A stretch of DNA of 64,000 nt. Origin: Mustelus asterias. Its lineage: Eukaryota. Within the stretch, counting starts at the first letter, position 1, and each line of letters starts with the position of its first letter. The notes under the pieces are model-generated. The model did no database searches, had not been told where the DNA came from, and saw nothing but the letters and a program-made list of their open reading frames with translations. The position numbers and the translations under genes were made by a program. The stretch lies in assembly GCF_964213995.1 (NCBI RefSeq), contig NW_027590156.1, forward strand, positions 186,001 through 250,000. Reading direction: 5' to 3'. Shown here piece after piece: positions 3,395 through 54,468 of this stretch.

Positions 3395-3583
3395 TAATCT
3401 GGAATTAAAAGTGTAATGATGACCATGAAACCATTATCAACTGTTGCAAAACCCCATCCGGTTCACTAATGTCATGGGGGAAGGAGATCTGCCATCCTTA
3501 GCTGGTTTGGCCTACATGTGACTCCAGAGCCACAGTAATGTGGTTGATCCTTAAATGTCCTCTCAAATGGAGGGCAATTAAGG
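3395..3583 (+). mobile_element. SINE fragment (second shark SINE family; same as 30593 and 35824)
   Basis: aatctggaattaa...ggttcactaatgtc...atctgccatcctta core is shared with the other two copies. Confidence 0.75.
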
Positions 3584-3593
3584 CTCCTCCCTC

Positions 3594-3670
3594 TGACGTC
3601 ATGGATTGGTGAACGAAGGCACTCTGAGCTGATTGGATGAAATGGAGGGTAATGAATCTGTGAGCTGATT
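3594..3670 (+). promoter_or_regulatory. V1 promoter: CRE palindrome TGACGTCA plus inverted CCAAT boxes
   Basis: TGACGTCA at 3594-3601, about 197 bp before the ATG; same motif and spacing in paralog V7 (27410-27417). Confidence 0.65.
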
Positions 3671-3797
3671 GGGTGTCTCCCGCTGGCTCTGTCAGGAACG
3701 AGCCAATCGCTTGAGGCCGGATATTTCTCAACATTTTCTGAACCCTGAAATAAATATGGAGCTTGAACTCACTGAGTTCAGATCCAGCATCATCTCT

Positions 3798-4328
3798 ATG
3801 AAGGCTTTGTGTGTTACTCTTTACCAGTTCCTCACAGCGTCAACTCTTTTAACTGGTAAGTTCCCAAGTTGCACATTCTGCCGCTTGCTCGCGATACTGA
3901 CATAGACACCTTTCCATTGAACTGTTTTTCCATCTATTTGTAATATATTCAATTACCTAAATCCCGTTGTTTCTGACAAAGTGAAAAGAAAAATTAAATT
4001 TCGTATTTCTATTCTTTTTTGCAGGTGTGAGTGCTGCAGGTTTTGTCTCCCAGGGACCGGTTACAGCGATAAGGTTTGAAGGAGAATCGGTGTGTATTGA
4101 TTTCAGCTATTCGACCACAGCTGCTGCATATTCTTTTCAGTTTTACCACCAGGACCTGTATAAAGTCCCCACATTCTTGATCTACATCCCCAATTACGAA
4201 GATGTTGTCAGAGCAGAGGGCGTGGGGCTCGATTTGCTGCATCTTTGAACACTTCGAAAAATCAGGGAAATTTCACCACGTGAGCTGCAGCTGTCTGACA
4301 GCGCGGTTTATTACAGCCGACTGAGAGA
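3798..4328 (+). pseudogene. TCR alpha/delta-type V segment V1 (pseudogene; family lacking Cys23)
   Basis: Leader 3798-3855 MKALCVTLYQFLTASTLLT|gtaagt; acceptor ttttgcag; V exon 4025-4328 GVSAAGFVSQ...FLIYIPNY, frameshifted in FR3, ending ELQLSDSAVYYSRLR next to an RSS. Confidence 0.9.
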
Positions 4329-5002: not shown

Positions 5003-5578
5003 CATAATATAGAAACATAGAAAAACTACAGCACAATACAGGCCCTTCAGCCCAGAAAGTTGTGTCGAACATGTCCCCATCTTAGCGATTACTAGGCTTA
5101 CCTATAACCCTCTATCTTACTAAGTTCCATGTACTTATCTAAAAGTCTCTTAAAATACCCTATCGAATCCGCCTCCACCACCGTTGCTGGCAGCCCATTC
5201 CACGCACCCACCACCCTTTGAGTGAAAAACTTACCCCTGACATCTCCTCTGAACCTACTCCCCAGCACTTTAAACCTGTGTCCCCTAGTGGCAACCATTT
5301 CAGCCCTGGGAAAAAGCCTCTGACTATCCACTCGATCAATACCTCTCAACATCTTATACACCTCTATCAGGTCACCCCTCATCCTTCGTCTCTCCAAGGA
5401 GAAAAGGCCGAGCTCACTCAACCTATCCTCATAAGGCATGCTGCCCAACCCAGGCAACATCCTTGTAAATCTCCTCTGCACCCTTTCTATGGCTTCCACA
5501 TCCTTCCTGCAATGAGGCGACCAGAACTGAGCACAGTGCTGCAAGTGTGGTCTGACCAGTGTCTTAAAGAGCTGCAAA
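5003..5578 (-). mobile_element. CR1 LINE, 5'-truncated
   Basis: ORF 5098-5607 LVRPHL...ERVQRRFTRMLPG...FFTQRVVGAWN (ORF2 C-terminus) plus tail. Confidence 0.95.
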
Positions 5579-5727: not shown

Positions 5728-5742
5728 ACCGCCATCTGGTGG
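5728..5742 (-). promoter_or_regulatory. CTCF motif
   Basis: Reverse complement CCACCAGATGGCGGT fits the CCASYAGRKGGCRSY core at every position. Confidence 0.6.
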
Positions 5743-6269: not shown

Positions 6270-6284
6270 CCACTAGGTGGCGCT
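6270..6284 (+). promoter_or_regulatory. CTCF motif
   Basis: CCACTAGGTGGCGCT fits the core at every position. Confidence 0.6.
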
Positions 6285-17799: not shown

Positions 17800-17814
17800 G
17801 CAGCAGAGGGCGCT
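17800..17814 (+). promoter_or_regulatory. CTCF motif 25 bp downstream of the V4 RSS
   Basis: GCAGCAGAGGGCGCT, one mismatch to the core. Confidence 0.5.
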
Positions 17815-18278: not shown

Positions 18279-18695
18279 TGGGCGGCACGCTGGCACTGCT
18301 GCCTCACAGCGCCAGAGCCTCTGGTCACTGCCTGTGTGGAGTTTGCACGTTCTCGTCCGGTTTCCGGAGGAAGAGGGTAGCTAAAGAGAGGGTGGGTCCA
18401 CACAAGCACAGTGGAGAGAATTTGTGTGTGGAGCCAGATGAGGTGGGTGAGGTCTTTAGTGACTACTTTGCATCAGTATTCACAAAGGAGAAGGATGTGC
18501 TGGATGGAGAGTGTAGAAAGGAGGGATGTTGACATTCTAGGACATGTTGAGTTGATTGGCCATACTAAATTGCCCCTTAGTGTTCGGGGGACTGGTAGGA
18601 TAAGTAGGTGGGGTTATGGGGTAGGGCCTCGATGGGATGGCGGAGGGTGCAGACTTGATGGACCAAATAGCCTCCTTCTGCAATGTATGCAATGA
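18279..18695 (+). mobile_element. HE1-type SINE interrupted by a CR1 fragment (~18365-18545)
   Basis: SINE head 18279-18360, CR1 peptide GEVFSDYFASVFTKEKD, then SINE 3' half. Confidence 0.8.
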
Positions 18696-19544
18696 TAATT
18701 TAAATGCTTGAACTCAATTTGCCTCAATGTTTTGAAGAAGATAAAGTGGTCAATAATCATTACAAAAACATCCACATGTAGAAGGATTGGAGCCCGATAT
18801 TGGTCAGAGGCCAGAGCGAGTGAGAGAAGGTGTGTCTGATGTGGAAAAGGCTGTCAAAATATGAATGAAAAACCCACATTGAGAGCGGCTTTCTGAATTA
18901 TTACACTGCAATCATTTCAACTATGTTCATTTCTTTTATGAATGGAAGTGGCACTGAAAGGTTTACCTAGCCGGCTGGTAATGAATTGTAGGTAATGAGG
19001 ACAAGCTTTACATATCCTCTGGGGACTGTAAACTTGCTGTCTGAACTTTGCTCTCGTGTTTTGAACACATGATTGGCGCTGACATTATTATCAATTAAAC
19101 AAATTCCAAACTCCGAGAGTCGTGGCTTATTGAATATACGATAACTAACCCGATTGAAGTTAATAATTTTAAACAGAGGTTCCATTGAGAGAAATCCTGC
19201 GTACAATAGTGGAAATGTTTATACTTCAAGATTGTTGCACGGAATGTACAGTGACAGCCAGTACCTTTGCTCCAAAGCGGCAGGTATACTTTTTAAGGAT
19301 ATCGTCACAAAGACATGTGTCTTCCTTTGAACTATGGTGGGAAGGATTCCATAACTGATTATCCGACCGCTGAACGGCGGCATAACCGCTCCTTCCTTCT
19401 CCAAAAGATCCTCGCTTTAGCCTTGAATTGGGAGTTTCTCTTCAAACGACAGGGACGCTGGCAATGTGGTGAGTCAATCAGCCACTCCGACACAAAATGC
19501 AATAATTGTTCAATAATTGCCTCAGTGCTTCAAGAGGGAAATTG

Positions 19545-21088
19545 AGTGGTTGGTAAACTGATAGAGAAGATCCTGAGGGACAGGATATATGAGCATTTAG
19601 AAAGGTTTAGTATGCTCAAGAATACTCAGCATGGCTTTGTCAAGGGTAGATCGTGCCATACGCGCCTGGTGGAGTTCTTCGAAAAGATCCAAAGATCTGC
19701 GGGTTAGGTTGATTGGCAAGGTTAAAAATTGCCCCTTAGAGTCCTGTGATGCGTAGGTTAGTGGGATTAGCGGGTAAATATGTGGGGGTAGGGCCTGGGT
19801 GGGATTGTGGTCGGTGCAGACTCGATGGGCCAAATGGCCTCCTTCTGCACTGTAGGGTTTCTATGAGTTCTATGAGTTCTAAAATGTGACTAAACACATT
19901 GACGAAGGGAAGGCGGTAGATGTGGTTTATATGGATTTTAGCAAAGCGTTCGATAAGGTCCCCCATGCAAGGCTTCCAGAAAAAGTGAGAGGGCATGGGA
20001 TCCGAGGGGCTGCTGCCCGGTGGATCCAGAACTGGCTTGCCCAAAGGAGGCAGAGAGTGGGTATAGATGGGTCTTTTTCTAAATGGAGGTCGGTCACCAG
20101 TGGTGTGCCCCAGGGATCTGTTCTGGGACCCTTGCTGTTTGTCATTTTCATAAATGACCTGGATGAGGAAGCGGAGGGATGGGTTGGTAAGTTTGCCGAC
20201 GACACGAAGGTTGGTGGGGTTGTGGATAGCCTGGAGGGATGTCAGAAGTTACAGAGGGACATAGATAGGATGCAAGACTGGGCGGACAAGTGGCAGATGG
20301 ACTTCAACCCAGATAAATGCGTCGTGGTCCATTTTGGGAGGTCAAATGGGATGAAGGAGTGCAATATAAAGGGAAAGACTCTTGGTACTGTAGAGGATCA
20401 GAAGGACCTTGGGGTCCGGGTCCATAGGACTCTAAAATCGGCCCCGCAGGTGGAGGAGGTGGTTAAGAACGCGTATGGTGTGCTGGCCTTTATCAATCGA
20501 GGGATTGAGTTTAGGAGTCCGGGGATAATGATGCAGCTATATAAGACCCTCGTCAGACCCCACTTGGAGTAATGTGCTCAGTTCTGGTCGCCTCACTATA
20601 GGAAGGATGTGGAAATAATTGAAAGGGTACAGAGGAGATTTACAAGGATGTTGCCTGGATTGAGTGGCATGCCTTATGAGGATAGGCTGAGGGAGCTCGG
20701 TCTTTTCTCCTTGGAGAGACGAAGGATGAGAGGAGACCTAATAGAAGTGCATAAGATGTTGAGATGCATAGATCGGGTGGACTCTCAGGGGCTTTTTCCC
20801 AGGGTGGAAATGTCTGCTACGAGAGGACACAGGTTTAAGGTTCTGGGGGGTAGGTACAGGGGAGATGTTAGGGGTAAGTTTTTCACACAGAGGGTGGTGG
20901 GCGAGTGGAATCGGCTGCCGTCAGTGGTGGTGGAGGCGAACTCAATAGGGTCTTTTAAGAAACTCCTGGATGAGTACATGGAGCTTAATAGGATGAAGGG
21001 TTATAGGTAGGTCTAGAAGGTAGGGATGTGTTCGGCACAACTTGTGGGCCGAAGGGCCTGTTCGTGCTGTAGTTTTTCTATGTTTTTT
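19545..21088 (+). mobile_element. CR1 LINE, 5'-truncated; near-identical subfamily to 37822-39326
   Basis: ORFs 19886-20572 and 20609-21010. Confidence 0.95.
19686..19880 (+). mobile_element. Headless HE1-type SINE inserted in CR1 (TSD aaaa)
   Basis: Interrupts CR1 ttcgaaaa|tgtgac; absent from the sister copy at 38100. Confidence 0.85.
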
Positions 21089-21363
21089 CTACGAAATATC
21101 GCAGTCATGGCTGAGCCATTCCCCCGATGGTAAGGCTTAAACGGACTGATCCTGAATGAACCAAATCCTGGACCAAGCTTGAGTTTGACGGCCACAATAA
21201 TCAGAATCGGGTTACATGTCACCATCTGCTGTGTAAAACCGTAATATCCCCCCCCAATAAAGCACTGACTGTTACGCAGCTCTGAGCGTTTCCAATCATT
21301 GGCAATCAGCCAATGGCAGCCAGCTCACCAGCCTGCCTATTCTCAATGTCACTGGGAACGTCA

Positions 21364-21436
21364 GAAAGTGAAGTGAAAACATCCTGAGACTCACAGCTGA
21401 TTACTGAGGGCGGGGTTGAGAACGGGTGTCTTCAAA
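21364..21436 (+). promoter_or_regulatory. V5 promoter core (ETS/IRF-like gaaagtgaagtgaaa plus GC box)
   Basis: About 37-110 bp upstream of the ATG; conserved in V12 (45974-46045) and partly in V11 (GGAAGTGAAA 36323-36332). Confidence 0.65.
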
Positions 21437-21472
21437 ATCCCCAACTCCTCTTCTACAGAGCGGACAGAGACA

Positions 21473-21938
21473 ATGCGGCTGCTCAGCATCTGGGTTGCGT
21501 GGGCAATTTTTCTGACAGGTAAATGTGGACCAAACACATTTCAACTTTTTTGTTACATTTTTGAAACATGGTGTCAAACAAAATTTTCAACAGTCGCCGG
21601 TCAGATCTTTTTATATTTGTTTTTTCAGATCTTATTCGTGGAGATTCTGTCACTCAGTCGCCGTCCTCAGATGTTAGGACAGAAGAAGAAGAAGCGGTGA
21701 CTTTAAATTGTAAATATGATACTGAAGCGAGGTACTACGATCTATACTGGTACCGGCTGCACCCAGACTCACAGCCTGAGTTTATATTGCGGAAATACTC
21801 AGATGGCGGTGAAGGTAAAGCCGGTTTTGCCAAAGGACGTTTCTCTGCTAAGCTCCAGACCGAGAATAAATTCACCAGTTTAACCATCTGGGGTCTGAAG
21901 CTGGCTGACACCGCCGTATATTACTGCGCTATCAGACG
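21473..21938 (+). CDS. TCR alpha/delta-type V segment V5, apparently functional (leader 21473-21518, V exon 21629-21938)
   Basis: MRLLSIWVAWAIFLT|gtaaat...ttcag|DLIRGDSVTQ...VTLNCKY...LYWYR...DTAVYYCAIR; open frame. Confidence 0.97.
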
Positions 21939-21977
21939 CACAGTGACAGAAAACAAGCTCAGTCCTGTACAAAAACT
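21939..21977 (+). other. 23-RSS of V5
   Basis: CACAGTG-23 bp-ACAAAAACT. Confidence 0.97.
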
Positions 21978-22129
21978 GCCTATCACTACAGAATGAAAAT
22001 CGCGGTAGATGTAGCCACAATGTACAGCGAAAGGAAACCAAGCCAACCTCGAATGAAACTGTTCCCAGAAGCAACTGCACAAACAAACTGCTGATTTCAA
22101 TCCGACAAACAGATCAGCACAGAGTCATA

Positions 22130-22203
22130 TTTGAAGATACCCGTTCTAATCCCCGCCTTTAATAATTTGTTCTCAACCCTCGGGATGTTCATGCCTCACT
22201 TCC
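22130..22203 (-). promoter_or_regulatory. Inverted copy of the V5 promoter core, downstream of the RSS
   Basis: Reverse complement matches 21364-21436 at 31/37 and 18/25 nt in two blocks; function inferred only. Confidence 0.6.
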
Positions 22204-23427
22204 ATGTGTGACTCTTGTTCTGTGAGAGCACTTGGTGGCGATCTGGTGCTGACATGGAAATAAAAGCGTCCGAGCCTGGCTACAGTCATGTCTTGATCGG
22301 GAACGGCCGAAATTTCAGAGACTGGGGGAGGTGGAAGAGGTGGTCGGGGAATGTAATCCTGGTCTGTATATTATCATTAGAAAAAATTGGATTGTTAGTG
22401 CTGACAGAAACCACACCAGCCTCCAGGAAACATTCTGAAGCTCACTGGGCACTAGGGAAAATCTACTTGGGGTTGGTTTAAAGATCACAGTCACCACTTT
22501 GCGAAATCTGTTCAATGTCTATAAGTTTTCTCTGTTTAAATAAACTGCGAGAGCTCCAGAAAACTGGGAGGGGATATGGAGAGAGGATTGTTCAATGTTA
22601 CAGTCACGGAAAATACATCGAAAGGAAAAAAGTAATTGGAGTAATGAAGTAGATTACTAAAGGTTGCTCTCAGTATAACTGGAGTTAACTAACACAATTC
22701 CGCAAGTATTCCTGACGTTTTTGTTTTGAGACTGCCGGTTACTCTGACTTTGTAGGCGGAGTTTTTGATTTTGTTTAGCAATGAGAGCGCTGTCTGGAAC
22801 TCCCTGTGGGGTTTTTGTCCCGAATCTGCGACTTCTCTGCTGGCTGCGTAGCACAGAAATGCGGCGTCAGAGAAAACGTCTCCCGTGATTTTTCAAGGGA
22901 CGGTTTGGTTTCCTTTGTGAAAATCAGCAGAGATCTTGCCTTGCACGTTTGGAGACCTGTTTTCAGCCCTCAGCAAAGGAGAGAGTCTGGAGAATGCATC
23001 CACAAGACAGATCCCATCAGCTCCGAACAGAGGAGTTAGCTGTCAGGCTCACTTCAAACTGAGGAATTGCGTGCAACCCTTAAACGTGTATTTGATAAAC
23101 TATCCTTTTTAACATATTCATTTTCACCTATTCACTGTCATTGTATTTCCACACTCTGTCTGCTATGGCACTATCACAGAGAACACCTGAGAACATCTTC
23201 CTCATCGACCCCCGTCTCAAACTCAGTCTGATTAGTAACAGTGACTCAAATTCTAGGAACAGCTTCATCCACATTCAACACTTGCATTTCATTCTTCAAG
23301 GCGATTTCTTTCAGTTCAATTGAAGGTAAACCTGTCTCTTAGCTCAATTAGGATCAAGCTGGCTGTCTTTACTCGCCTCGAGTTTATCGTCAATGTCTCA
23401 GTTCTCTGTAATCAGCGTTTAAGTTAG

Positions 23428-23444
23428 TGACGTCAGACCAATCA
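23428..23444 (+). promoter_or_regulatory. V6 promoter: TGACGTCA plus CCAAT
   Basis: agTGACGTCAgaCCAATcag about 160 bp upstream of the ATG; paralog V10 has TGACATCA at ~33377. Confidence 0.65.
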
Positions 23445-23593
23445 GATCCAGCGATCTCTGCTCTTCCTCCCATAGGTTCTGTAGGATGTGACGACGGATC
23501 AGCCTCAGCCAATGCTCTCAGCATTATCTTGTTCGATATTTTGCAGCTTTCGGAGACACAAGAAGTCCCTGGAATTCAGGAGCAGCACTAGGA

Positions 23594-25662
23594 ATGCGGA
23601 TGCCGGTTCTCACTGTGAACTGGGTGACAGTCATTGTCGGTAAGAAGTTTAAAACTTGAAAAAAGCGTAAACTGAGTTTAAGTTCTGGAGAAAAAAAGCC
23701 AATATCGGGCCTGTCATACGTCTTTGCTCTTGGCTTTTACTTTCAGGAGTATAGTTTGGCGAAACGCACAGCAAACCGATACCAAAATTGGGAGATGACA
23801 TCATCAGAAAGCAATGTAAACGTTGTGGTTAATTTTTACATAAGAACATAAGAAATAGGAGCAGGAGGAGGCCATCTAGCCCCTCGAGCCTGCCCCGCCA
23901 TTCAATAAGATCATGGCTGATCTGAAGTGGATCAGTTCCACTTACCCGCCTGATCCCTATAACCCCTAATTCCCTTACCGATCAGAAATCCATCTATCCG
24001 TTATTTAAACATATTCAACGAGGTAGCCTCCACCACTTCAGTGGGCAGAGAATTCCAGAGATTCACCACTCTCTGAGAGAAGACGTTCCTCCTCAACTCT
24101 GTCCTAAACGGACCCCCCTTTATTTTGAGGCTGTGCCCTCTAGTTCTAGGTTCCTTTCTAAGTGGAAAGAATCTCTCCATCTCTACCCTATCCAGCCCCT
24201 TCATTATCTTGTAGGTCTCTATAAGATCGCCCCTCAGCCTTCTAAATTCCAACGAATACAAACCCAATCTGCCCAGTCTCTCCTCATAATCAACACCCCT
24301 CATCTCTGGTATCAACCTGGTGAACCTTCTCTGCACTCCCTCCAAGGCCAATATATCCTTCCGCAAATAAGGGGACCAATACTGCACACAGTATTCCAGC
24401 TGCGGCCTCACCAGTGCCCTGTACAGATGCAGCAAGAATCTCTGCTTTTATATTCTATCCCTCTTGCGATATAGGCCAACATCCCATTTGCCTTCTTGAT
24501 CACCTGTTGCACCTGCAGACTGGGTTTTTGCGTCTCATGCACAAGGACCCCCAGGTCCCTCTGCACGGCAGCATGTTGTAATTTCTTTCCATTTAGATAA
24601 TAATCCAATTTGCTATTATTTCTTCCAAGTGAATAACCTCGCATTTGTCAACGTTTTCTCCATCTGCCAGATCCTCGCGCACTCACTCAGCCTGTCCAAA
24701 TCTCTCTGCAGACCTTCTACGCCCTCCACACGATTCACTTTTCCACTTATCTTTGTGTCGTCTGCAAACTTTGTTACCCTACACTCAGTCCCCTCCTCCA
24801 GATCGTCTATATAAATGGTAAATAGTTGAGGCCCCAGTACCGATCCCTGCGGCACGCCACTAGTTACCATCTGCCAACCAGAAAAACACCCATTTATTCC
24901 GACTCTCTGCTTCCTGTCGAGAAGACTAAAGCATAACCTGACTGGTGTATTTACAGTGATGAAGAGGTTTGACGTGGTGAACGGGGAGAGAATGATTCCA
25001 CTTGGGCAGGATTCCATACCCATGTCCCATAAATCTAAGTGAAACAAAAAGATTAAGAAGAATTACAGAGAATCTTCTTTAGAAAGAGTTCTGTAGAAAG
25101 TGACTCACATTAACACAATGAACACTTGAGGAGAGGAGTAAAAACACAGTTGGGTGAACTAGATAAAACAGCTGAGAGAGAAAGGGACAGAGGCATTTGA
25201 CATGAGGCGAGAGGGAGGATTCTACTGGGGATTGTAAACGGGGACGAAAAATCAGTTGGAACGAATGTATTATCATTTAATGTTTATTTTTATGTTACAC
25301 CGTCTGCGAATTTCCACCCCCAGTGCAGTTTAATGTTTTTCTTTGTTTAAACGTGATTTCCAGATATGAGCAATGGAGATTCAGTTCGTCAGCCGGAATC
25401 CTCACTCACACGGTCAGAGGGAGAAGATGTCACTTTAAGCTGCACCAATACGGACAATGCTTATTATTTATTCTGGCACCGTCAATACCCAGGCAAACAG
25501 CCCGAGTTGGCGGTCCGGAAGGACACGAGCGGCAGTTATGAATTTAAGGCGGATTTCGCTCAGACCCGGTTTCCTGATACAATTCAGCACTCAGAAAAGT
25601 TGCATGACCATCTCGGAGCTGCTGCTGTCTGACACCGCGGCCTATTACTGTGCACAGGATCT
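23594..25662 (+). pseudogene. V segment V6 (leader 23594-23639, V exon 25364-25662; one frameshift in FR3; CR1 in intron)
   Basis: MRMPVLTVNWVTVIV|gtaaga; DMSNGDSVRQ...VTLSC...LFWHRQYP..., frameshift, then TISELLLSDTAAYYCAQD. Confidence 0.92.
23838..24920 (-). mobile_element. CR1 LINE in V6 intron (related to the full-length copy at 39579)
   Basis: ORFs 24616-25047, 24408-24644 and 24001-24435. Confidence 0.95.
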
Positions 25663-26694: not shown

Positions 26695-27211
26695 TATATC
26701 TGTTCAATATTTCCTCTGGTTTCAGTCACTGTGTCTCTCAGTCCGCAGTAATACACTGCGCTGTTAGACAGTCACAGCTCACGTATGGCGAAACTCCCTT
26801 CACTTTTTGAAGTGTTCATAGATGCAGAAAATTGAGTCCCCACTCCCTCTGGTCTGGTCTGAAAACATCGCCATATATAGGGATGTAGATCAAGAATGGG
26901 GGGCTTTTCCCCCACATCATTCTGAAATCATTCATGAGCGAATCTCCTTCAAACGTTGTCGTAAAACGGCTCCTGTGAGACAGAATCTGAGTCGATAACA
27001 CCTAGCAACAAATTAAAAATACAGATTTTTTAAAAAAATTGGCAATGATATCAAGTTAACGGAATTGTTTGCAAACAGTGGAGAAACAGATAATGGGTGA
27101 TTTCCAAGTCCGGATCACGAGCAAAGTGAAAATTATTCAACCTAGGAACTTGACAGTTAAGAGCGCTGAAGCTGAGAGAATTTCTGCAAAGGTAACAGTT
27201 AACATGTTCAC
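26695..27211 (-). pseudogene. V segment V7 with RSS (inverted paralog of V1)
   Basis: Leader 27211-27154 with ATG>GTG and a dead donor; exon 27001-26734 ..FEGDSLMNDF..FLIYIPIYGD..SAVYYCGLR with a CDR1 deletion; RSS CACAGTG-23-ACAGATATA at 26733-26695; TGACGTCA at 27410-27417. Confidence 0.9.
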
Positions 27212-27973
27212 AGAGCTGATGCGGGATCTGAACTCAGTGAGTTGAAGCTCAATTTTTCCAGGACAGAGTTCACAAAATGTTGAGTCATATCGGCCTCACT
27301 AGCAGTTGGTTCATTCCTGACAGAGCCAACAGGAGACACCCAATCAGCTCACAGCTCCTTTGTCGTACATTTCATCTAATCAGCTAAGACTGTCTTCATT
27401 CTACAAACATGACGTCAGAGCGAGGAGTATGTAACAATTTGAATCTGTTCTTAGAACAATTAACTGGACAGAAGAACATCAGAGAATAGGAACAGGAGTT
27501 GGAGTGGACCATTTGCTCCTTTATTAGCGTCCGCTAGCTTCAGTAAGATCATGGCTGCTTTTCCTCACATCCATCTTCCTGCAATATCCGCATATTCCTT
27601 ATTTGCCTATCGTCACCCTTGTTGAATAACTATGTCTCTCTGTGATCGAGAATAGTAATGATGGGCATTAAAAATAATTGTGTTTCTTTATCTTTGCGAT
27701 GGGTCACTTACAGGTAATAGTTCAAGTTGTTCCGATAACAGTACCAAAGTTTACCTGTCAATGAGCTGCTCGGTGATCTGGAAAACTACTATAAAGACGG
27801 GTTTTACAGAGAACGACACAGATTCAGCGCCGCAGAAATAAAACATTCGGGCAAGTTGGCTTTTTTAAATGTGTTTCTGTTATATTAACAGATCACAGTC
27901 CAGATCACAGATCTGATTCAGTAAGAAGAGGTGAGAGTGCCTTTGCTGTTTGTTGTAGACTGACTGTACCTCT

Positions 27974-28875: not shown

Positions 28876-29308
28876 CAGTGTGGTGTTCAGCGCACAGTGA
28901 TACACGGCAGAGTCAGAGTCAAAGACCTCGGTGACATTTAAAGGACTTGTTTCCTTGTCTATGTACAAATCAGCAGAAAACCGGTCAGGACAACCGGGAG
29001 ACTTATTCCCCTTCCCCTTGCCGTAACTCCTCAGTAAATATCTCGGAGCTTCCCCGGGACACTGGATGCATCAAAAAAAAGTATTGTTTCGTAAGTGGGA
29101 GTTCAATATTACCGTCTGCCCTTACTGAAACGTTAATTCAGGCGGCTTCTGGGAAACTGAATCTTGGCCATTGGTTCCTGTAACAACATATAGAATGTGC
29201 GAGAAATCTGTGAGTAAATATAACCCATGAAACACACACTGAGGATTTGAGCTCAGGCTCATCGGGCAGCATGACTATTATTATCAGTAAAGCACACAGG
29301 GGACACAT
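28876..29308 (-). pseudogene. V segment V8 (leader 29308-29263, exon 29177-28883, heptamer 28882-28876)
   Basis: MCPLCALLIIIVMLP with donor gt>at; GTNGQDSVSQKPPELTFQ*GQTV...PGEAPRYLL...DRFSADL...DSAVYHCALN then CACACTG. Confidence 0.9.
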
Positions 29309-33545: not shown

Positions 33546-34648
33546 ATGCGGCTCCTGGTTCTCGCTTTGTTCTGGATAACACTCATTCTGGGTAAGAAGG
33601 TTAAAATGTGAAAAACAGGAGAATCACATAAAAAGGAAGACATTTAAAAGGCAAGGAGCACATTTTAACCTCCAGCCTAAATCTGGTTAGACTTCATTAA
33701 AAGTGTTTGTAAAATAATACAAATACGGAGGTGAAACCAGAAAATGCGGTTTATAAGGATACAGTCAAATCTCAGGTTAAAAGGAATTATCCGAAATCAT
33801 TGTACATGCTAGGATTGTTATCTCGAGCAAAGGGAGCAATGCGTTAACTTGGGAGAAGTCTTTAAAAATGTTGATGATGTTTCAGAATCCTGAAAAGGAG
33901 TCGCCCCCCTCCCCCCCCCCCCCCGCACCCCCCCCCCCGCCACCCCCGCCCCCACGCACCCCCCCCCACCCCCCCCCCACCCCCAAAGTAGACGATTTTA
34001 AAACGCGGTATATAAAAGCTTTCAATGAGTCTGACAAAGATTCCAGGAAAAAGATCCAACGCAGAGAGTGTCTCCAATGTGGAAATCATTATCACCGGGA
34101 GGTTGCGGGTCATTATTATAACTTAAATGAAGGAGAAAATTAATGAGAAGATTATGGAGAAAGCAGAAGATGGAAATTTTCCGAGGGTGAGATGAAAACG
34201 CTTGCAGGAGGCTCCTTGAAGTGTTAACCAGACATCAGTTGTGTCGAATGAAGGTTCATTCTCGGCTCTCATTCTATCGAATGTAATAGAAAACTGACCT
34301 CCATGTTTCACCCGTTACAGTTTGGAACGATGGAAATTCTATTACTCAGCGGGAATTCTCAGTCATACAGACAAAGGGAGAAGATGTCACTTTAGCCTGC
34401 ACCTATACTGGCAATTATTTGCACTTATTCTGGTACCGTCAGTACACAGCCAGACAGCCCGAGTTTGCAGTCCAGAGATACACCAGCGGCCGTTCTGAAT
34501 TGAAGCCGAATTTCGCTTGGAACCGGTTCAGCACTCAGACAATTTATTGACCATTTCGGAGCTGTGGCTGTCTGACACCGCGGTCTCTTGTGCACTGTGC
34601 ACTGAAACTCAGAGTGATGGGAACGAGTGAAATTCTCATCTAAAAACT
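33546..34648 (+). pseudogene. V segment V10 (paralog of V6; leader 33546-33591, exon 34321-34609, dead RSS 34610-34648)
   Basis: MRLLVLALFWITLIL|gtaaga; WNDGNSITQ...VTLACTY...LFWYRQY...; FR3 deletion and stop; heptamer CAGAGTG-23-CTAAAAACT. Confidence 0.92.
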
Positions 34649-36188: not shown

Positions 36189-36427
36189 CGAAACAGAGTC
36201 ACGCTGTTCTTTCATTCCGGAGTCACAAACACAGAACGGGTGACGACCGTCATGCAACACGGGTTTCAAATTATTCATAACTGACTCACGACCGCCAGTC
36301 TCACAGCGCCCCCAGCGATACAGGAAGTGAAATGTTGACATCCCGATACTCGGCGGATAAGTGGGGACGGGATTTAGAACAGATTCTACCAAATTGCCAG
36401 CTCCCTTTTGTAGAGCTGACAGAGACA

Positions 36428-36924
36428 ATGCGGCTGCTCAGCATCTGGGTTGTGTGGGTAGCATTTCTGGCAGGTAATTTGGGATTAAGTGCATTTCGTT
36501 TTTTCTCTCATTTGTCAAGCAGGGTTGAAATCTTTCCACGCTCTGGCCTGGCCTATTACTATGTGATCACCTTTTTCAGATCTGACTAATGCGGATTCTG
36601 TCACCTAGCGGCGCCCCGCACATATTAAAACAGAAGGAGAAGCGGTGGCATTGACCTGTACTTATGATACAACAGAAAGAAGCTATAGATTATACTGGTA
36701 CCGACAGTGCACAGATAATCAGCCTGAGTTTATAGTGTGGAAAAGCTCCGGAGGCTTTGAATATAAAGCAGAGTTACTAAGATCCGTTTCTCTGCTAATC
36801 TCCTGACCGAGAATAAAGTCACCAGTTTAACCATCTTGGGTCTGCAGCTGAGTGACATTGCTGTGTATTACTGCGCTTTCAGACTCACAGTGATAAAATA
36901 CAGTCTCACCGCGCTACAGAAGCT
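36428..36924 (+). pseudogene. V segment V11 (family of V5/V12; leader 36428-36473, exon 36580-36885, RSS 36886-36924)
   Basis: MRLLSIWVVWVAFLA; DSVT* nonsense codon plus FR3 frameshift; ...DIAVYYCAFR; CACAGTG-23-ACAGAAGCT. Confidence 0.93.
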
Positions 36925-39326: not shown

Positions 39327-39668
39327 CTAATGTAAATAGAACAGAGACAAAGCACAGAACCATAGTTCCAACCAGACCTTCTCATTCCCACCGTCAACAA
39401 ACCTCGGTCCTCTGAAGCCTGTCGGGGGTGAGCTGCATCTTAATGAATGGAAACTTTCCCGGCTGGGTTGCAGACAAACTCCCTGCAGGTACCCATCCAG
39501 ACGCCTCTTAAATGTTGCTAATGTGCATGCTTCCAAAACAGCGGCGTGTTCCAGGCACCCACCACCTCCCCCGCAAATAAGAACATAAGAAACAGGAGCA
39601 GGAGTAGGCCATCTAGCCCCTCGAGCCTGCCCCGCCATTCAATAAGATCATGGCTGATCTGACGTGGA

Positions 39669-42600
39669 TCAGTACCACTTACCCGCCTGATCCCCATAAC
39701 CCTTAATTCCCTTACCGATCAGGAATCCATCCATCCGCGCTTTAAACATATTCAGCGAGGTAGCCTCCACCACCTCAGTGGGCAGAGAATTCCAGAGATT
39801 CACCACCCTCTGGGAGAAGAAGTTCCTCCTCAACTCTGTCTTAAACCGACCCCCCTTTATTTTGAGGCTGTGTCCTCTAGTTTTATCTTCCTTACTAAGT
39901 GGAAAGAATCTCTCCATCTCCACCCTATCCAGCCCCCGCATTATCTTATAAGTCTCCATAAGATCCCCCCTCATCCTTCTAAACTCCAACGAGTACAAAC
40001 CCAATCTCCTCAGCCTCTCCTCATAATCCAAACCCCTCATCTCCGGTATCAACCTGGTGAACCTTCTCTGCACTCCCTCCAATGCCAATATATCCTTCCT
40101 CATATAAGGGGACCAATACTGCACACAGTATTCCAGCTGCGGCCTCACCAATGCCCTGTACAGGTGCATCAAGACATCCCTGCTTTTATATTCTGTCCCC
40201 TTCGCAATATAGGCCAACATCCCATTTGCCTTCTTGATCACCTGTTGTACCTGCAGACTGGGCTTTTGCGTCTCATGCACAAGGACCCCCAGGTCCCTTT
40301 GCACGGTAGCATGTTTTAATTTGTTTCCATTGAGATAATAATCCCATTTGTTATTATTTCCTCCAAAGTGTATAACCTCGCATTTCTCAACGTTATACTC
40401 CATTTGCCATATCCTCGCCCACTCACTCAGCCTGTCCAAATCTCTCTGCAGATCTTCTCCGTCCTCCACACGATTCACTTTTCCACTTATCTTTGTGTCG
40501 TCTGCAAACTTCGTTACCCTACACTCCGTCCCCTCCTCCAGATCATCTATATAAATGGTAAACAGTTGCGGCCCGAGTACCGATCCCTGCGGCACGCCAC
40601 TAGTTACCTTCCTCCAACCGGAAAAACACCCATTTATTCCGACTCTTTGCTTCCTGTCGGATAGCCAGTCCCCAATCCACTTTAACACACTACCCCCAAC
40701 TCCGTGTGCCCTAATATTCTTCAGCAGCCTTTTATGGGGCACCTTATCAAACGCCTTTTGGAAATCCAAAAACACCGCATCCACCGGTTCTCCTCCATCA
40801 ACCGCCCTAGTCACATCTTCATAAAAATCCAACATGTGCGTCAAGCACGCCTTTCCCCTCATGCATCCATGCTGCGTCTGATTGATCGAACCATTTCTAT
40901 CCAGATGCCCTGCTATCTCCTCTTTAATAATGGATTCCAGCATTTTCCCTACTGCAGATGTTAAGCTGACCGGCCTATAGTTACCCGCCTTTTGTCTCCT
41001 TCCTTTTTTAAACAGCGGCGTAACATTAGCCGTTTTCCAATCAACCGGCACTACCCCAGAATGCAACGAGTTTTGATAAATAGTCACTAACGCATCCACT
41101 ATTACCTCTGACATTTCTTTCAATACCCTGGGATGCATTCCATCCGGACCCGGGGACTTGTCCACCTTCAGTCCCATTAGTCTACCCAGCACTGCCTCTC
41201 TGGTAACATTAATTGTATTAAGTATTTCTCCTGCTGCCAACCCTCTATCGTTAATGTTTGGCAAACTATTTGTGTCCTCCACCGTGAAGACCGACACAAA
41301 AAACTTATTTAAAGACTCAGCCATATCCTCATTTCCCACTATTAACTCCCCCCTCTCGTCCTCCAAGGGTCCAACATTCACTCTAGCCACTCTATTCCTT
41401 TTTATATATTTATAAAAACTTTTACTATCATTTTTTATATTAATTGCTAGCCTAGCTTCATAGTCTATCCTTCCTTTCTTTATCGCTTTCTTAGTCTCTC
41501 TTTGTTGTTTCTTAAATTTTTCCCAATCACTTGTTTCTCCACTATTTTTGGCCACTCTGTACGCAGCTGTTTTTATTTTAATACTCTCCTTTATTTCCTT
41601 CGTTATCCACGGCTGGTTCTCCCTTTTCTTACAATCCTTGTTTTTTGCTGGAATATGTTTTTGCTGAGAACTGAGAAGGATCTCCTTAAAAATCCTCCAC
41701 TGTTCCTCAGCTATCCTACCTGCCAGCCTGCTCTCCCAGTCTACCTGAGCCAATTCATCCCTCATCCTATCATATTTCCCTCTGTTCAAACAGAGGACAC
41801 TGGTTTGGGACCAAACTTTCTCCTCTTCCATCTGAATCAGAAATTCGACCATATTGTGGTCACTAGACCCAAGAGGGTCCTTCACAATAAGATCCTTAAT
41901 TCTACCTACCTCGTTACACAATACCAGATCCAAAATAGCTCGTTCCCTCGTCGGTTCCGTAACATGCTGTTCAAGGAAACTATCCCGACAGCATTCTAAG
42001 AACTCTTCCTCCATTCCACCCTTACCGACTTGAGTCTGCCAGTCAATGTGCATGTTGAAGTCCCCCATGATTATTGCCGTTCCGTTTTTACACGCATCCC
42101 TTATCTGCTTGTTTATAGCCCTCCCTACCTCAACATTATTATTTGGGGGCCTATATACCACACCTACTAGTGTCTTTCTCCCCCTACTATTCCTCATCTC
42201 TACCCATAATGATTCCACGTTTTGTTCCTCAGAGCCTATGTCATCCCTCAGTACTACCCTGATATTATCTCTTATTAATAGCGCGACCCCACCACCTTTT
42301 CCTTCCTGTCTATCCTTCCTAAACGCCTGATACCCCTGGATATTCATCTCCCAGTCCTGGTCACCTTTCAGCCACGTTTCTGTAATGGCCATCAGATCGT
42401 ACCCACTTGTGCTGATTTGCACCATCAACTCATTTACCTTGTTCCGAATGCTTCGTGCATTCAGGCAAAGTGTCCTTACTCCAGCTTTTATCTGGACCCG
42501 CTTTGATGAGTCGCGAACACCCTCTCCCTCTACTCCCTTACCTAAATTACCGCCTTCATTCACTTGCACCCTCTCCTCTACCATTAATTTTGTACTTCCC

Positions 42601-42674
42601 CTTACCCCTGCATCCTCCCCCCCATCAATTAGTTCCTTGATCCTAGTCAACTCTTCTAGCTCCCCTCCCCCCAA
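39669..42674 (-). CDS. CR1 ORF2: APE endonuclease plus reverse transcriptase (open for 1001 codons; true start probably a downstream ATG)
   Basis: LNARSIRNK, ITETWL, GDFN, SDH (APE); [24 protein letters not shown] (RT). Confidence 0.95.
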   Translation of the reverse strand: MGGGELEELTRIKELIDGGEDAGVRGSTKLMVEERVQVNEGGNLGKGVEGEGVRDSSKRVQIKAGVRTLCLNARSIRNKVNELMVQISTSGYDLMAITETWLKGDQDWEMNIQGYQAFRKDRQEGKGGGVALLIRDNIRVVLRDDIGSEEQNVESLWVEMRNSRGRKTLVGVVYRPPNNNVEVGRAINKQIRDACKNGTAIIMGDFNMHIDWQTQVGKGGMEEEFLECCRDSFLEQHVTEPTRERAILDLVLCNEVGRIKDLIVKDPLGSSDHNMVEFLIQMEEEKVWSQTSVLCLNRGKYDRMRDELAQVDWESRLAGRIAEEQWRIFKEILLSSQQKHIPAKNKDCKKRENQPWITKEIKESIKIKTAAYRVAKNSGETSDWEKFKKQQRETKKAIKKGRIDYEARLAINIKNDSKSFYKYIKRNRVARVNVGPLEDERGELIVGNEDMAESLNKFFVSVFTVEDTNSLPNINDRGLAAGEILNTINVTREAVLGRLMGLKVDKSPGPDGMHPRVLKEMSEVIVDALVTIYQNSLHSGVVPVDWKTANVTPLFKKGRRQKAGNYRPVSLTSAVGKMLESIIKEEIAGHLDRNGSINQTQHGCMRGKACLTHMLDFYEDVTRAVDGGEPVDAVFLDFQKAFDKVPHKRLLKNIRAHGVGGSVLKWIGDWLSDRKQRVGINGCFSGWRKVTSGVPQGSVLGPQLFTIYIDDLEEGTECRVTKFADDTKISGKVNRVEDGEDLQRDLDRLSEWARIWQMEYNVEKCEVIHFGGNNNKWDYYLNGNKLKHATVQRDLGVLVHETQKPSLQVQQVIKKANGMLAYIAKGTEYKSRDVLMHLYRALVRPQLEYCVQYWSPYMRKDILALEGVQRRFTRLIPEMRGLDYEERLRRLGLYSLEFRRMRGDLMETYKIMRGLDRVEMERFFPLSKEDKTRGHSLKIKGGRFKTELRRNFFSQRVVNLWNSLPTEVVEATSLNMFKARMDGFLIGKGIKGYGDQAGKWY

Positions 42675-42679
42675 CCTAT

Positions 42680-43618
42680 CTAGTTTAAATTCTCCCCAGT
42701 AGCCTTAGCCAACCTACTGGCCAGGATATTGGTCCCCGTCTGATTCAAGTTCCACCCGTTTTTTGTATACAGATCACCCCTGCCCCTAAAGAGGTCCCAA
42801 TGATCCAGGAACCTGAATCCCTGCCCCCTGCACCAGTCCCTCAGCCACACATACATCTTCCACCTCACTCCATTCCTGCCCTCACCTTCCCGTGGCACAG
42901 GCAGTAATCCTGAGATTACTACCTTTGCTTTCCTCTTTCTCAGCTGTCTCCCTAATTCCCTGTACTCCCTTTTCATGACCCCTTCTCCCTTCCTACCCAC
43001 ATCAGCGGTACCAATATGTACCGCTACCTCAGGCTTCTCTCTCTCCCACCTCAGGATTTCCGGGACGCGACTAGCGACATCCTGGATCCCGGCCCCAGGG
43101 AGGCAGACCACCATGCGAGAATCTCGCCTACCTCCGCAGAAACGCCTGTCTGTCCCCTTCACCATCGAGTCCACGATTAATACCGCCTTCCTCCTCTTTT
43201 CCTTAGCCCTCTGAGTTACAGGGCTGGACTCCACTGCGGAGACACGGCCACTGCTGCTTCCCCCAGGCGGGCTGTCCCCCCCAGCAGTACTCAAGCAGGA
43301 GTACTTGTTATGCAGGGGCAAATCCACCGGGGTGCTCTCAACCACCCTAGCCTTACCCTTCCTGGCCGTCACCCACTTGGCCTCCTCCCGTGGCCCTGGT
43401 GTGACCACCTGATGATAGCTCTTGTCTATCACCTCCTCATTCTCCCTCATCAGCCTAAGATCCTCGAGCTGCAGTTCCAGCTCCCTAACACGGTCCCTCA
43501 GGAACCGCAGCTCGACACACCCCTCACAGATGTGGATGTCCGGGAGGCCAGATGCCTCCAGGACCTCCCACATCCTACACTGGGAACAACACACTGGTTT
43601 CACACTCATACTGGACAC
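42680..43618 (-). CDS. CR1 ORF1: Cys-rich zinc finger / coiled coil plus SGNH esterase-like domain
   Basis: CSQC..CEGC, LRDRVRELELQLEDL, VLIVDS, CLPGA, HIGT; 312 aa open. Confidence 0.9.
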   Translation of the reverse strand: MSSMSVKPVCCSQCRMWEVLEASGLPDIHICEGCVELRFLRDRVRELELQLEDLRLMRENEEVIDKSYHQVVTPGPREEAKWVTARKGKARVVESTPVDLPLHNKYSCLSTAGGDSPPGGSSSGRVSAVESSPVTQRAKEKRRKAVLIVDSMVKGTDRRFCGGRRDSRMVVCLPGAGIQDVASRVPEILRWEREKPEVAVHIGTADVGRKGEGVMKREYRELGRQLRKRKAKVVISGLLPVPREGEGRNGVRWKMYVWLRDWCRGQGFRFLDHWDLFRGRGDLYTKNGWNLNQTGTNILASRLAKATGENLN

Positions 43619-45177
43619 TTTATGTCAAGTAAGACAGTGAAAAGTTAATAAGAGTGTAAGGAAACAAAAACTCACCCCTGCTCGTCCAAACCCTGTGAGC
43701 CAAAGCCCTGACAGCTCACTGAACTTCCCACTCACTCTGCTGCCCGCTACAATGCTGCCCGCTGTATACCTTGGTGCGCTTTTAAACCCTCCAAAAACTT
43801 CCCCAGGCCACTCCTGGCCCGACTTCCGGTTTTGAAAAAAACCTCCGATTTTAAACCCAAAATTAACTGAAAAAATAAATAATTAATTACAGTCAGAAAA
43901 CCCACTCTCTTACCCTCAGCCTGCTCCTGGGAACAAATCTCCCTCAAACTTCCCCTTGAACCAGTGCTCCCCTTGTAATTGACACGTCCACCCTGTCTAT
44001 GCCTCCAATAATGTTGTAGATCCAATCCAGGTCTTCCCTCAGCCTCTGTATTTCAGTAAAAACAGTCCTAGTCTATTCATACTCCTCATAGCCATCGCCC
44101 TCGGGATCGTGCAGCATCCTGGGGAACATTCTTTGAACTCTCTCCAAAGCTTCTAAGTCCTTTTGGTCGGACTGGGAGGTCCGGGGTGGATGTAACCCTG
44201 GTCTGTAGTTTATCGTCAGGAAATTCTGAATTGTTAGCGCAAAGTTCTAGAAGAACAGCGCCTCATTAACACTGGACTGCCGACATACGACAACCACAGT
44301 GTCCCAACTCTGACCTGTTCCTCCAGTATCTGCGGGAGCTCTGACACATTTACTGAAGGCAAACAGCTCTCGGAGTTACACTCGCTGCTGATTTTCACAA
44401 GGAAACAAAGTTGTCCCTTGAAATATCACAGGAGAAGTTCTCTCTGACATCGCCGTGCATGGTTGTGCTATGGAGCCAACACTGCTACAGAGAAGTAACA
44501 GATCCAGAACACAAAAAAAAACATACTCCCAGTATCCAGACAGCGCTCTCACTGCTAAACAGAGGTAAAAATTCCGCTTCCAAATGCAGAGTCACCTGGA
44601 ACTTTACAATAACAACAAAATTCAGGAAAACGTACGGAATTGTACTGGTTAAATCCAGTGCAGTTATGCTGAAATCAGCATTCAGAAATTTACTTCCTTA
44701 CTTGAATTTACTTCTTTTTCCTTCGATGTGTTTTCCGGGACTGTCTGTGACATTGAACAACCCTCTCCATCCCTCTCGCAGTTTCGTGGAGCCTTAGACC
44801 ACGGCCTGTTAACACGATTTATTTAATCAGAGTGCGTTGCTGGATCAAAGAAAACTTATAAACACTGAATAGATTTCGCAAAGGGGTGACTATCATCTTT
44901 AAAACAACCCCAAGGAGATTTTCCTCAGTGAGCACTGAGCTTCAGAATGTTTCCTGGAAGCTGGTGTGGTTCTTGTCAACACGAACAATCCGGAATTTTC
45001 TGATGATAATTTACAGACCAGACTTACATTCCCCGGCCACCACTTCCTCCTCCCCAGTCTCTGAAAGTCCGGCGATTCCCCTGTCAGGGCACTGCCTGTA
45101 ACCAGGCTCGGACACTTCTCTTTCAATATCAACCCCAGATCACCACCAACTGGCCTCAGAGAACCAGAGACAGACAC

Positions 45178-45251
45178 GGAAGTGAGGCAAGAGCATCCCG
45201 GGGGAAGAGGACAAGTTATTAAGGGCGGGATTTCGAACGGGTGTCTTCTAA
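45178..45251 (+). promoter_or_regulatory. Inverted copy of the V12 promoter core, downstream of the RSS
   Basis: ggaagtga...catccc...ttattaagggcgggatttcgaacgggtgtcttc matches the V12 promoter read on the minus strand. Confidence 0.6.
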
Positions 45252-45429
45252 TGTGATTCTGCGATGATCTGTTTGCCTGATTGAATTCTGAAGTTTGTTT
45301 TCTCAGTCTCTCCTGGGAACAGTTTCATTCGAAGTGAGTTTGGTTTCCTTTCGCTGCACATTGCGGCTGCATCTACTACAATCCTTCACAGACCCCAACA
45401 GACAGCAGCTGCACTCTGCAGTGAAATAC

Positions 45430-45468
45430 AGTTTTTGTACAGGGCTGAGCTTGCTTTATATCACTGTG
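45430..45468 (-). other. 23-RSS of V12
   Basis: CACAGTG-23 bp-ACAAAAACT. Confidence 0.97.
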
Positions 45469-45937
45469 CGTCTGAAAGCGCGCAATAATACACGGCGGCG
45501 TCAGTCAGCTTTAGACCCAAGATGGATAAACTGGTGAATGTATTCTCTGTCTGAAGCTCAGCAGAGAAACGGCTTTTGGCAAAATTGGCTTTTTCTTCAC
45601 TGCCGCCCGAGTATTTCCACAAAATAAACTCGGGCTGTGAGTCTGGGTGCTGCCGGTACCAGTATAGATAGTAGTAGCTAAATGCAGGATCATAGTTACA
45701 GTTTAAAGTCACCGCTTCTCCTTCTGTCCTGACATCTGAAGACAGCGACTGAGTGACAGAATCTCCATGAATCATATCTGAAAAACAACATTCAAATATC
45801 AAAAGATCTGACCGATAACTGTTGAAAATTAAGGTTTACGTCATGTATGAAAATTGAAAGACAAGTAGAAATGTGTTTGGTCCACATTTACCTGTCAGAA
45901 ATATTGCCCACACAACCCAGATGCTGAGCAGCGGCAT
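45469..45937 (-). CDS. TCR alpha/delta-type V segment V12, apparently functional (leader 45937-45892, exon 45777-45469)
   Basis: MPLLSIWVVWAIFLT|gtaaat...ttcag|DMIHGDSVTQ...VTLNCNY...LYWYRQ...DAAVYYCALSD. Confidence 0.97.
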
Positions 45938-46387
45938 TGTCTCTGGCCGCTCTGTAAAAAGGGAGTTGGGGATTTTGAAGACACCCGTTCTAAACCCCGC
46001 CCTCAATAATCTGCTGATGCCTCAGGATGTTCTCACTTCACTTCCTGGTGTTCCCAGTGACAGTGTGAACAGGCAGGCCGGTGAGCTGGCTGTCAGAGCT
46101 GGGTAACAGTCAGTGATTTATGGGGGGAATATTTCCGTTTTACACAGCAAATGGTGACAGTTAAATCCGATTCTGATTATCGTGACCGTCAAACTCAGGT
46201 TTGCTCCAGGATTTGGTTCATTCAGGATCAATCCGTTTATTGAAGTCTTACCATCAGGGGAGTGGCTCAGCCGTGAATGCGAGTTTTCCCTCATGAAACT
46301 CCGAGGCAATTGTTGAACAATTATTGTATTGTATGTCCGCGTGGCTGATTGACTCACCAGGCTGTCTTGTGACACATTGGCAGCGTC

Positions 46388-53340: not shown

Positions 53341-53355
53341 CCACCAGAGGGAGCT
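53341..53355 (+). promoter_or_regulatory. CTCF-like motif
   Basis: CCACCAGAGGGAGCT, one mismatch to the core. Confidence 0.5.
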
Positions 53356-53397
53356 CTCTCACATGTTTTGTGTTCACTGTATCAGGAGCGGGTTCCA

Positions 53398-53852
53398 TTA
53401 CGCAGTGACATAGGGAGACATAAATCAGGAGAATTGGATTAATTATTGGATTACACAGTGTAATGTAGGAGTACTGCTTTAATTGTGGGATTACACAATG
53501 ACATGTTACAGAGCAGAAATCCAGAAGAACTGGATTAATTGTTGGATTAACAGTGATATGTTACAGAGCAGTAATACAGGAGAACTGGATTAATTCTGAG
53601 AATACACAGTAATATTTGACAGATCATTAATCCAGGGGAACTGAATTAATTGTTGGATTCCAATAATATGTTACAGAGCAGTAATCCAGGGGAACTGGAT
53701 TAATTGTTGGATAACACAGTGATATGTTACAGAGCAGGAATCCAGGGGAACTGGATTAATTGTTAGAATACACAGTGATATGTTACAGAGCAGAAAACAC
53801 GGAGAACTTGATTAATTGTTGGACTACACAGTAATATTTTACAGAGCAGATA
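53398..53852 (+). repeat. Minisatellite, 56-bp unit, about 8.5 copies
   Basis: Consensus ttacacagtgatatgttacagagcagtaatccaggggaactggattaattgttgga. Confidence 0.95.
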
Positions 53853-54468
53853 TGGATGCTGAATTTGCTGATGACACAAAGATAGATAGGAAAATAAATG
53901 GTGAAGAGGATGTAAGGAGACGATAAAGGTATATAAAAAGCTGAAGTGAGTGGGCAAAGCTCCGCCAAGTTGGCAAATGTGAAACTGTCCATTTTCGCAG
54001 GAAAAAAGTAAAATACGGTTAATATCTAAATGGTGAGAGATCACAAAATTCTGAGGTACAGTGAGACTGGGCTGTCCTAGGGTGTGAATAAAAAGGGGCC
54101 AATATACAGGTACAGCAATTAATTAGAAACGTCATAAAATGTTATCATTTATTCCGAGGGAATGTATTATAAAATAGGAAGGACCATAAATTCGTAAGAT
54201 ATAGGAGCAGGATTAGGCGATATGGCCCATCAAGTCCGCTCCGCCATTCAATCATGGTTGATATGCTCCTCATCCCTATTTTCCTGCCGTCTCCCCATAA
54301 CCCTTCAACCCATTACCAATTAAAAATCTGTCTAACTCCGCCTTAAGTTTACTCTGTGTCTCAGCATCGACCGCACTTTGGAGTAGCGAATTCCACAAAT
54401 TCAAAACCCTTTGGGAGAAGTAGTTTCTCCTCAACTCTGTTTTAAGTTTGCTACTCCTTCTCCGAAGA
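53853..54468. mobile_element. CR1 fragments (old plus-strand RT piece, then minus-strand 3' end 54182-54468)
   Basis: FADDT motif at ~53864; ccataa/gtaagatatagg tail and 3'UTR. Confidence 0.8.

Follow-up and report, generated by a model that had tools for sequence, protein, structure and literature searches.

An inverted promoter core behind the recombination signal of a shark T-cell-receptor-type V gene, probably the stump of an opposite-facing sister gene

The stretch of Mustelus asterias DNA described here (64,000 nt, referred to below as the window) holds a V array of shark T-cell-receptor type with genes on both strands. Eleven full-length V loci in the window were scored by nhmmer with a V model built from them, and among these open frames are found in V5, V12 and the V gene ending at 7802; broken V genes are abundant on both strands of the locus. 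In other V families (3545-3860, 27130-27450 and 23420-23650) the promoter is built differently and contains a TGACGTCA site together with several CCAAT boxes. Two V genes, those at 25366 and 34323, have their leaders far upstream (23600-25366 and 33550-34323, respectively), and the intron of the first carries a LINE-like insertion, a label that we apply here and below on the assumption that the translated frames of such insertions are those of LINEs. Elsewhere in the window we observed CTCF-like 14-mers differing by at most 1 mismatch from what we take to be the CTCF motif (5278-5291, 5729-5742, 6270-6283, 17800-17813 and 53341-53354), three of them within 1 kb and between two V genes; a 396-bp palindrome (60958-61353, 93% self-identity) whose repeat recurs at 19683-19875; and a tandem repeat array (53397-53853) containing a 12-spacer RSS-like match at 53771 that is probably due to chance (exact heptamer, 3 nonamer mismatches).

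All parts of V5 lie on the plus strand. Its upstream region (21093-21363), 87-89% identical to that of V12, is interrupted 5' by a LINE-like insertion that ends near 21085. A presumed promoter core follows at 21364-21436, 36 nt before the ATG, composed of blocks that we take to be ETS-like and GC-box motifs, separated by a spacer; we infer its promoter role from its position and its conservation (64/72 to the V12 core and 51/70 to that of Vk, the third member of the family). The first GGAA core (GAAAGTGA, 21364-21371) is missing from the V5 promoter and is kept in V12, in Vk and in both of the inverted copies described below, and given this missing site the V5 promoter may be the weaker one. 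The leader exon (21473-21518, ATG to GT donor) splices in frame, across a GT-AG intron, to an open V exon of TCR alpha/delta type (21629-21938; Pfam V-set E 6.8e-18), directly 3' of which is a 23-bp-spacer RSS (21939-21977) with an exact heptamer and one mismatch in the nonamer. The V exon is 61% identical to a Chiloscyllium protein, and its PDB matches frequently include TCR alpha/delta chains in the top 60, with antibody chains intermixed; by protein similarity only, the V5 chain would thus be TCR alpha/delta.

The first-pass annotation of this DNA had pointed to a reverse complement of the promoter core 152 nt past the V5 nonamer, and both the copy and its distance are borne out. The inverted promoter core (22130-22203, minus strand) has its ETS-like and GC-box motifs intact. 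Against the V5 promoter it matches at 31/37 positions in the GC block (arms 21400-21436 and 22130-22166, 37 nt, 84% complementary), at 18/25 in the ETS block as counted by eye, and at 53/73 over the whole core, with a local alignment score of 60 that lies far beyond the shuffles (mean 21 and maximum 31 in 300). The 152-nt gap itself (21978-22129) is a 3' flank of the V-family type, matching V12 at 120/152 positions and Vk at about 60%. The arrangement promoter>L-V-RSS<promoter, around an intact V5 leader, V exon and 23-RSS, is therefore as originally described. The copy was, however, taken for one of V5's own promoter, and it is in fact closer to that of V12 (58/72, ahead of 53/73). Identity peaks in the inner GC block, decreases outward through the ETS block and the sequence upstream of it, and breaks off abruptly at the inner edge. 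Out of register, 11 nt in the spacer of the V5 inverted copy (22164-22180, minus strand) perfectly match the end of the V5 GC block (21413-21423), a match that is not kept in the V12 copy. A CTCF-like 14-mer at 22228-22241 was rejected, its 3 mismatches to the assumed motif being at chance level (88 matches versus 84.8 expected). Rfam gave 0 matches at E up to 1 over 21000-23800, and metagenome scans with the V protein as query and with the core pattern found no match.

The copy had been delimited at 74 bp and proves longer. A diverged inverted promoter-upstream region occupies 22204-22310 (minus strand) in anchored alignments, and by eye possibly reaches about 22380. In anchored upstream alignments of 150 nt, the four V5/V12 pairs were equalled by 0, 1, 4 and 69 of 500 shuffles, the two pairs involving the Vk promoter by 221 and 347 of 500; a two-by-two upstream profile reached a local score of 26 (highest of 100 null scores, 22), its anchored form being not significant (27/100). 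Taken together, these alignments indicate that homology continues past the 74-bp core for ~100 bp or more upstream.

On its other side, by contrast with this upstream homology, the copy is followed by no leader, as had been noted. Without gaps, 20-23 of 82 positions are identical, anchored downstream (leader-side) alignments of six pairs were matched by 27 to 358 of 500 shuffles, and neither the V5 nor the V12 copy has a recognizable leader or V-exon remnant behind its inverted promoter. A V gene once attached to it is consequently something that we can only infer, and an inverted duplication of the promoter by itself fits equally well. A GT dinucleotide occurs 82 nt past the inverted core at both V5 (22047-22046, minus strand) and V12 (45334-45335, plus strand), the offset of the real leader donor in the sense gene; it looks like a good splice donor at V12, and a donor-like GT is also retained in the Vk 3' flank (about 37028, minus strand). 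The idea that it marks a decayed leader was rejected, the intervening identity being at chance, and for its position at the exact leader-donor offset there is no explanation beyond chance.

The same layout is indeed present at V12, as the first-pass annotation had it. The V12 promoter core lies at 45974-46045 (minus strand); leader, intron, V exon and 23-RSS (45430-45937, minus strand) are intact; and 178 nt past the nonamer lies an inverted promoter core (45178-45251, plus strand) that is a duplicate of 22130-22203 (61/74). V12 is nevertheless no second example: two pairs of segments, 21093-22933 with 46288-44382 (77.5% identity) and 18542-19455 with 48539-47611 (79%), show that V5 and V12 are one inverted segmental duplication, entire 3' flank included, and their layouts are not independent. 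The borders of the V12 reversal fall far outside the inverted-core arms. A further piece of the downstream block (44176-44240, plus strand; 48/65 to 22337-22401) may be part of the Vk unit, a provisional assignment. Between the Vk island described next and the V12 unit there is a LINE-like insertion (39577-44170, minus strand), apparently young, with a 1011-codon stop-free frame.

Vk (36323-36924, plus strand) is a pseudogene with an early stop, a frameshift and a weak nonamer. Its 3' flank matches those of V5 and V12 at about 60% as far as a LINE-like insertion at 37098 and, after 2.2 kb of insertions, picks up again at 39327-39490 (minus strand), an island flanked by LINE-like insertions and 2440 nt away from the RSS that holds a decayed inverted copy (nhmmer E 0.025). 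Its scores were matched by 0/500 shuffles against the V12 copy and by 1/500 against the V5 copy. About 46 nt of it, including the ETS half, are deleted, the GC box is lost, and its GC block matches the other copies at 20-22/37 positions. With a third copy behind Vk, the inverted element predates the Vk split.

A check on whether the copy follows V genes in general shows that it does not. The promoter region of each of the 11 V loci was compared with the reversed 700 nt behind its RSS, using 100 shuffles, and only V5 and V12 (2/11) beat all of them. No inverted promoter copy was found within 700 nt of the RSS at Vk or at 8/8 loci of other families, in a survey whose promoter windows are approximate for broken genes and in which insertions could conceal a displaced copy, as at Vk.

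What lies further along the opposite strand bears on where the copy came from. At 22810-22933 (minus strand) we identified the broken 3' end of a V gene of another family, similar to the pseudo-V whose end lies near 28885 (28907-28977 by blastn, E 2.7e-04; nhmmer with the V model, E 0.1), with an exact nonamer (22818-22810) and no heptamer. Its longer counterpart in the V12 unit (44267-44520, plus strand) carries an RSS remnant and scores E 4.6e-06 with the V model. In both units, the relic sits ~600 bp upstream of the inverted core and on the same strand. Read along the minus strand at V5, the order is V relic, RSS, about 500 bp, V5-family upstream region, promoter core, a break, and then the reversed V5 3' flank, which reads like a truncated array of V genes facing the opposite way. 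Neither six-frame translation nor the V model detected a coding relic in 22204-22800.

Contigs from other sequencing runs extend the picture beyond this assembly. In 4/4 runs examined, under four organism labels, contigs cover the inverted core (21 listed; 2-3 per run at 22175), so the unit is not private to this assembly, with the reservation that run X1 may be of the same species. The contigs span the V5 intron and are thus uninformative on expression, and comparisons between runs mix paralogs. Among the matches listed, contigs of runs X1, X5 and X18 contain what reads as the sense promoter of a sister gene, a loose end before the 5' UTR; in its X1/X5 string it matches the inverted copy at 23/25 positions, versus 19/25 for V5's own promoter (counted by eye, among the matches listed). 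An opposite-strand joint at 21450/22127 in X1 (short side of 40 letters, among the matches listed), the one candidate for a unit in the flipped orientation, is likewise read as the sister promoter. A promoter outside the window that is closer to the inverted copy than V5's own points to descent from such a sister gene.

Based on these observations, we suggest that the inverted 74-mer is a stump, the remaining 5' end of a sister V gene that faced the other way, and is drifting near the neutral rate, and we put the probability of this reading at roughly 0.65. An opposite-strand block, comprising a V gene from a different family with its RSS, some 500 bp of DNA and a V5-family promoter, would have been joined to an ancestral V5-family 3' flank; duplication of the joined unit would then have produced Vk and, at a later stage, V5 and V12. 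The break with the sister V would have fallen where the promoter core ends, with the stump drifting since, and residual binding of factors to it is possible but would be unselected. A relic promoter of a lost opposite-strand V had been the alternative offered in the first-pass annotation, and the homology upstream of the core, the V relic on the same strand and the shared duplication make it the better supported of its two proposals. Against a relic it can be held that there is no trace of a leader or V exon, so that the attached gene has to be supposed, and that the decayed copy sits behind a pseudogene, as a functional element's would.

Near-neutral drift is compatible with most of the divergence between V5 and V12, in comparisons that all have low power. 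Their inverted cores agree at 61/74 positions (82%) and their flanks at 692/874 (79%; Fisher p=0.55), and the difference between the sense cores (64/72) and the inverted cores is also not significant (p=0.35). The sense promoter plus leader (349/392), on the other hand, is better conserved than 21978-22310 (263/333; p=0.0003). As a neutral yardstick we used intron plus flank, with distances of 0.56 to Vk and 0.215 between V5 and V12, a clock that runs over four short alignments. Of the 48 columns on which the three sense promoters agree, 9 and 11 are changed in the inverted copies, for a neutral expectation of 23% (p=0.28 and 0.54); 7 of the changes at these columns are shared (15.5% expected, p=0.53) and 6 are private (18.7% expected, p=0.18). 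In the comparison proposed at first pass, motifs look better kept than the spacer. This pattern, however, needs selection on the sense side only, as the changes at conserved columns fit the neutral expectation: motifs would outlast spacers mainly because selection fixed them in the sense promoters, leaving one branch to drift there and both to drift in the spacer.

The GC block departs from this before the duplication. One change in its 37 nt is common to both inverted copies, versus about 5.7 expected (p=0.015, a nominal value for a block chosen post hoc as the best match, with a clock resting on four short flank alignments). After the duplication, 7/37 of its sites changed, as in the flanks (21%), compared with 2/37 in the sense promoters. 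The ETS block agrees at 20/22 positions between the two inverted copies, which is not significant relative to the flanks (p=0.28). On this evidence the whole inverted core is compatible with neutral drift, with the pre-duplication GC block deviating at its nominal p.

The deviation is one of several points in favor of a co-opted relic, in which the ETS and GC-box sites of the stump would have been kept and would open chromatin near the RSS, with or without short antisense transcripts, thereby raising use by RAG, in the manner of the PU.1 or PAX5/IRF4 sites near mouse V RSSs. The copies lie 152-178 nt 3' of the RSS, and being there they would, in standard V(D)J geometry, be excised on rearrangement. 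Behind the functional V5 and V12 the two GGAA cores and the two GC boxes are preserved, and the motifs are destroyed behind the pseudogene Vk; private changes at the conserved columns are fewer than expected, at the p-value of 0.18 given above; the unit recurs in all 4 runs examined; the donor-like GT is present at V5 and V12 and kept in the Vk flank; and sites on the RSS side of V genes have a precedent in mouse, in the available parts of PMC4914699 and PMC5698286. The post-duplication GC block, changing as the flanks do, speaks against this idea, as does the absence of the element from the other V families in the window. The X1 paralog, "same length, diverged" over 22122-22305 between flanks of 87-90%, is most diverged precisely over the core (among the matches listed). 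The cross-species pieces point in opposite directions: in X18 the core piece differs at 9/128 positions and downstream pieces by 11-14%, and in X6 at 19/130 and by 7-15% (both among the matches listed). In the mouse Igh locus, moreover, the portion of PMC4914699 available to us describes antisense transcription as no robust predictor of recombination. We therefore regard co-option as unlikely but worth keeping in mind. Its fullest form, a family-specific shark recombination element made from a backward V promoter, which would open the RSS through its ETS and GC-box sites, possibly aided by a short antisense RNA that is spliced, and would be discarded on joining, appears doubtful.

An improbable refinement, which would supplement rather than replace the sister-gene stump, is that a neutral relic was refreshed by gene conversion, the sense promoter having overwritten the inverted GC block over the intervening 700-bp loop not long before V5 and V12 were duplicated. 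Such an event would account for identity that is highest in the inner block, falls outward and has a sharp inner edge, and for a GC block in the V5 copy that is nearer the V12 promoter (33/37) than its own duplicate behind V12 (30/37). The signal, however, is a single post hoc block, and the sister promoter outside the window beats V5's as a match to the inverted copy.

The proposal put forward at first pass, a dedicated convergent promoter built into each gene that targets RAG and AID to the unrearranged V and whose repeats could flip the ~840-bp unit, has in its favor the geometry and the reported hypermutation of shark TCR-alpha (in the accessible text of PMC5931798), and is very improbable: the copy occurs at 2/11 V loci, of one family and from a single duplication, with a third copy decayed and divergence compatible with neutral drift; the AID step contains a logical gap, in that the element leaves with the signal end and, in the same part of PMC5931798, mutation was scored in rearranged clones with a common CDR3, from which it is gone; and flipping is unlikely between arms that are 73% alike (53/73), with longest perfect matches of 11 nt at V5 (out of register) and 14 nt at V12, where the reversal borders lie elsewhere.

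If the sister-gene stump is the right reading, the inverted core is ordinary V-gene duplication debris, relevant only to annotating the locus. If co-option were true, it would offer an experiment of nature on the origin of elements 3' of the RSS and their influence on V usage, with V5 and V12 (intact), Vk (destroyed) and the neighboring families (no element) as a ready test set, and it would mean that V promoters can give rise to elements on the RSS side of the kind found in mouse Igh and Igk. The functional reading would then be that of a known kind of element, and the novelty would be its origin from a V promoter.

Birth-and-death duplication leaves antigen-receptor loci with truncated relics of V genes and with duplicated V cassettes, and the inverted core resembles these in being part of a V gene left beside a live gene and copied along with it. 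It differs from them in that the promoter end is present alone, with neither leader nor V exon, and points toward the RSS of a functional member of its own family. We did not find a promoter-behind-RSS layout described in the literature that we searched, whose coverage of subscription papers is thin. The closest functional parallel is found in the mouse Vkappa locus, where PU.1 binding at the RSS predicts recombination and where, as here, ETS-type sites lie within 500 bp 3' of the V gene (PMC5698286, in the part available). For those sites binding and recombination were measured, whereas the shark copy is known from its motifs alone; they are also not presented, in that part of the source, as copies of V promoters.

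The mouse Igh locus provides a second comparison, which likewise draws on the available part of PMC4914699. Its VH genes have elements 3' of the RSS, downstream CTCF/RAD21 or PAX5/IRF4 sites, that lie, like the shark copy, on the far side of the V from the promoter and are excised on joining; excision on recombination, taken as new in the first-pass annotation, is thus already a property of these sites. The VH sites were defined by chromatin data and are not linked there to antisense transcription, whereas the shark element consists of motifs only. Transcription from the inverted core would run opposite to the unrearranged V, much as in the antisense intergenic transcription of mouse VH genes cited in the same paper. 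That transcription, unlike a promoter at each gene, is reportedly confined to a few domains (PMC4914699, same part), and the shark copy, which would stand behind individual V genes, is known from its sequence.
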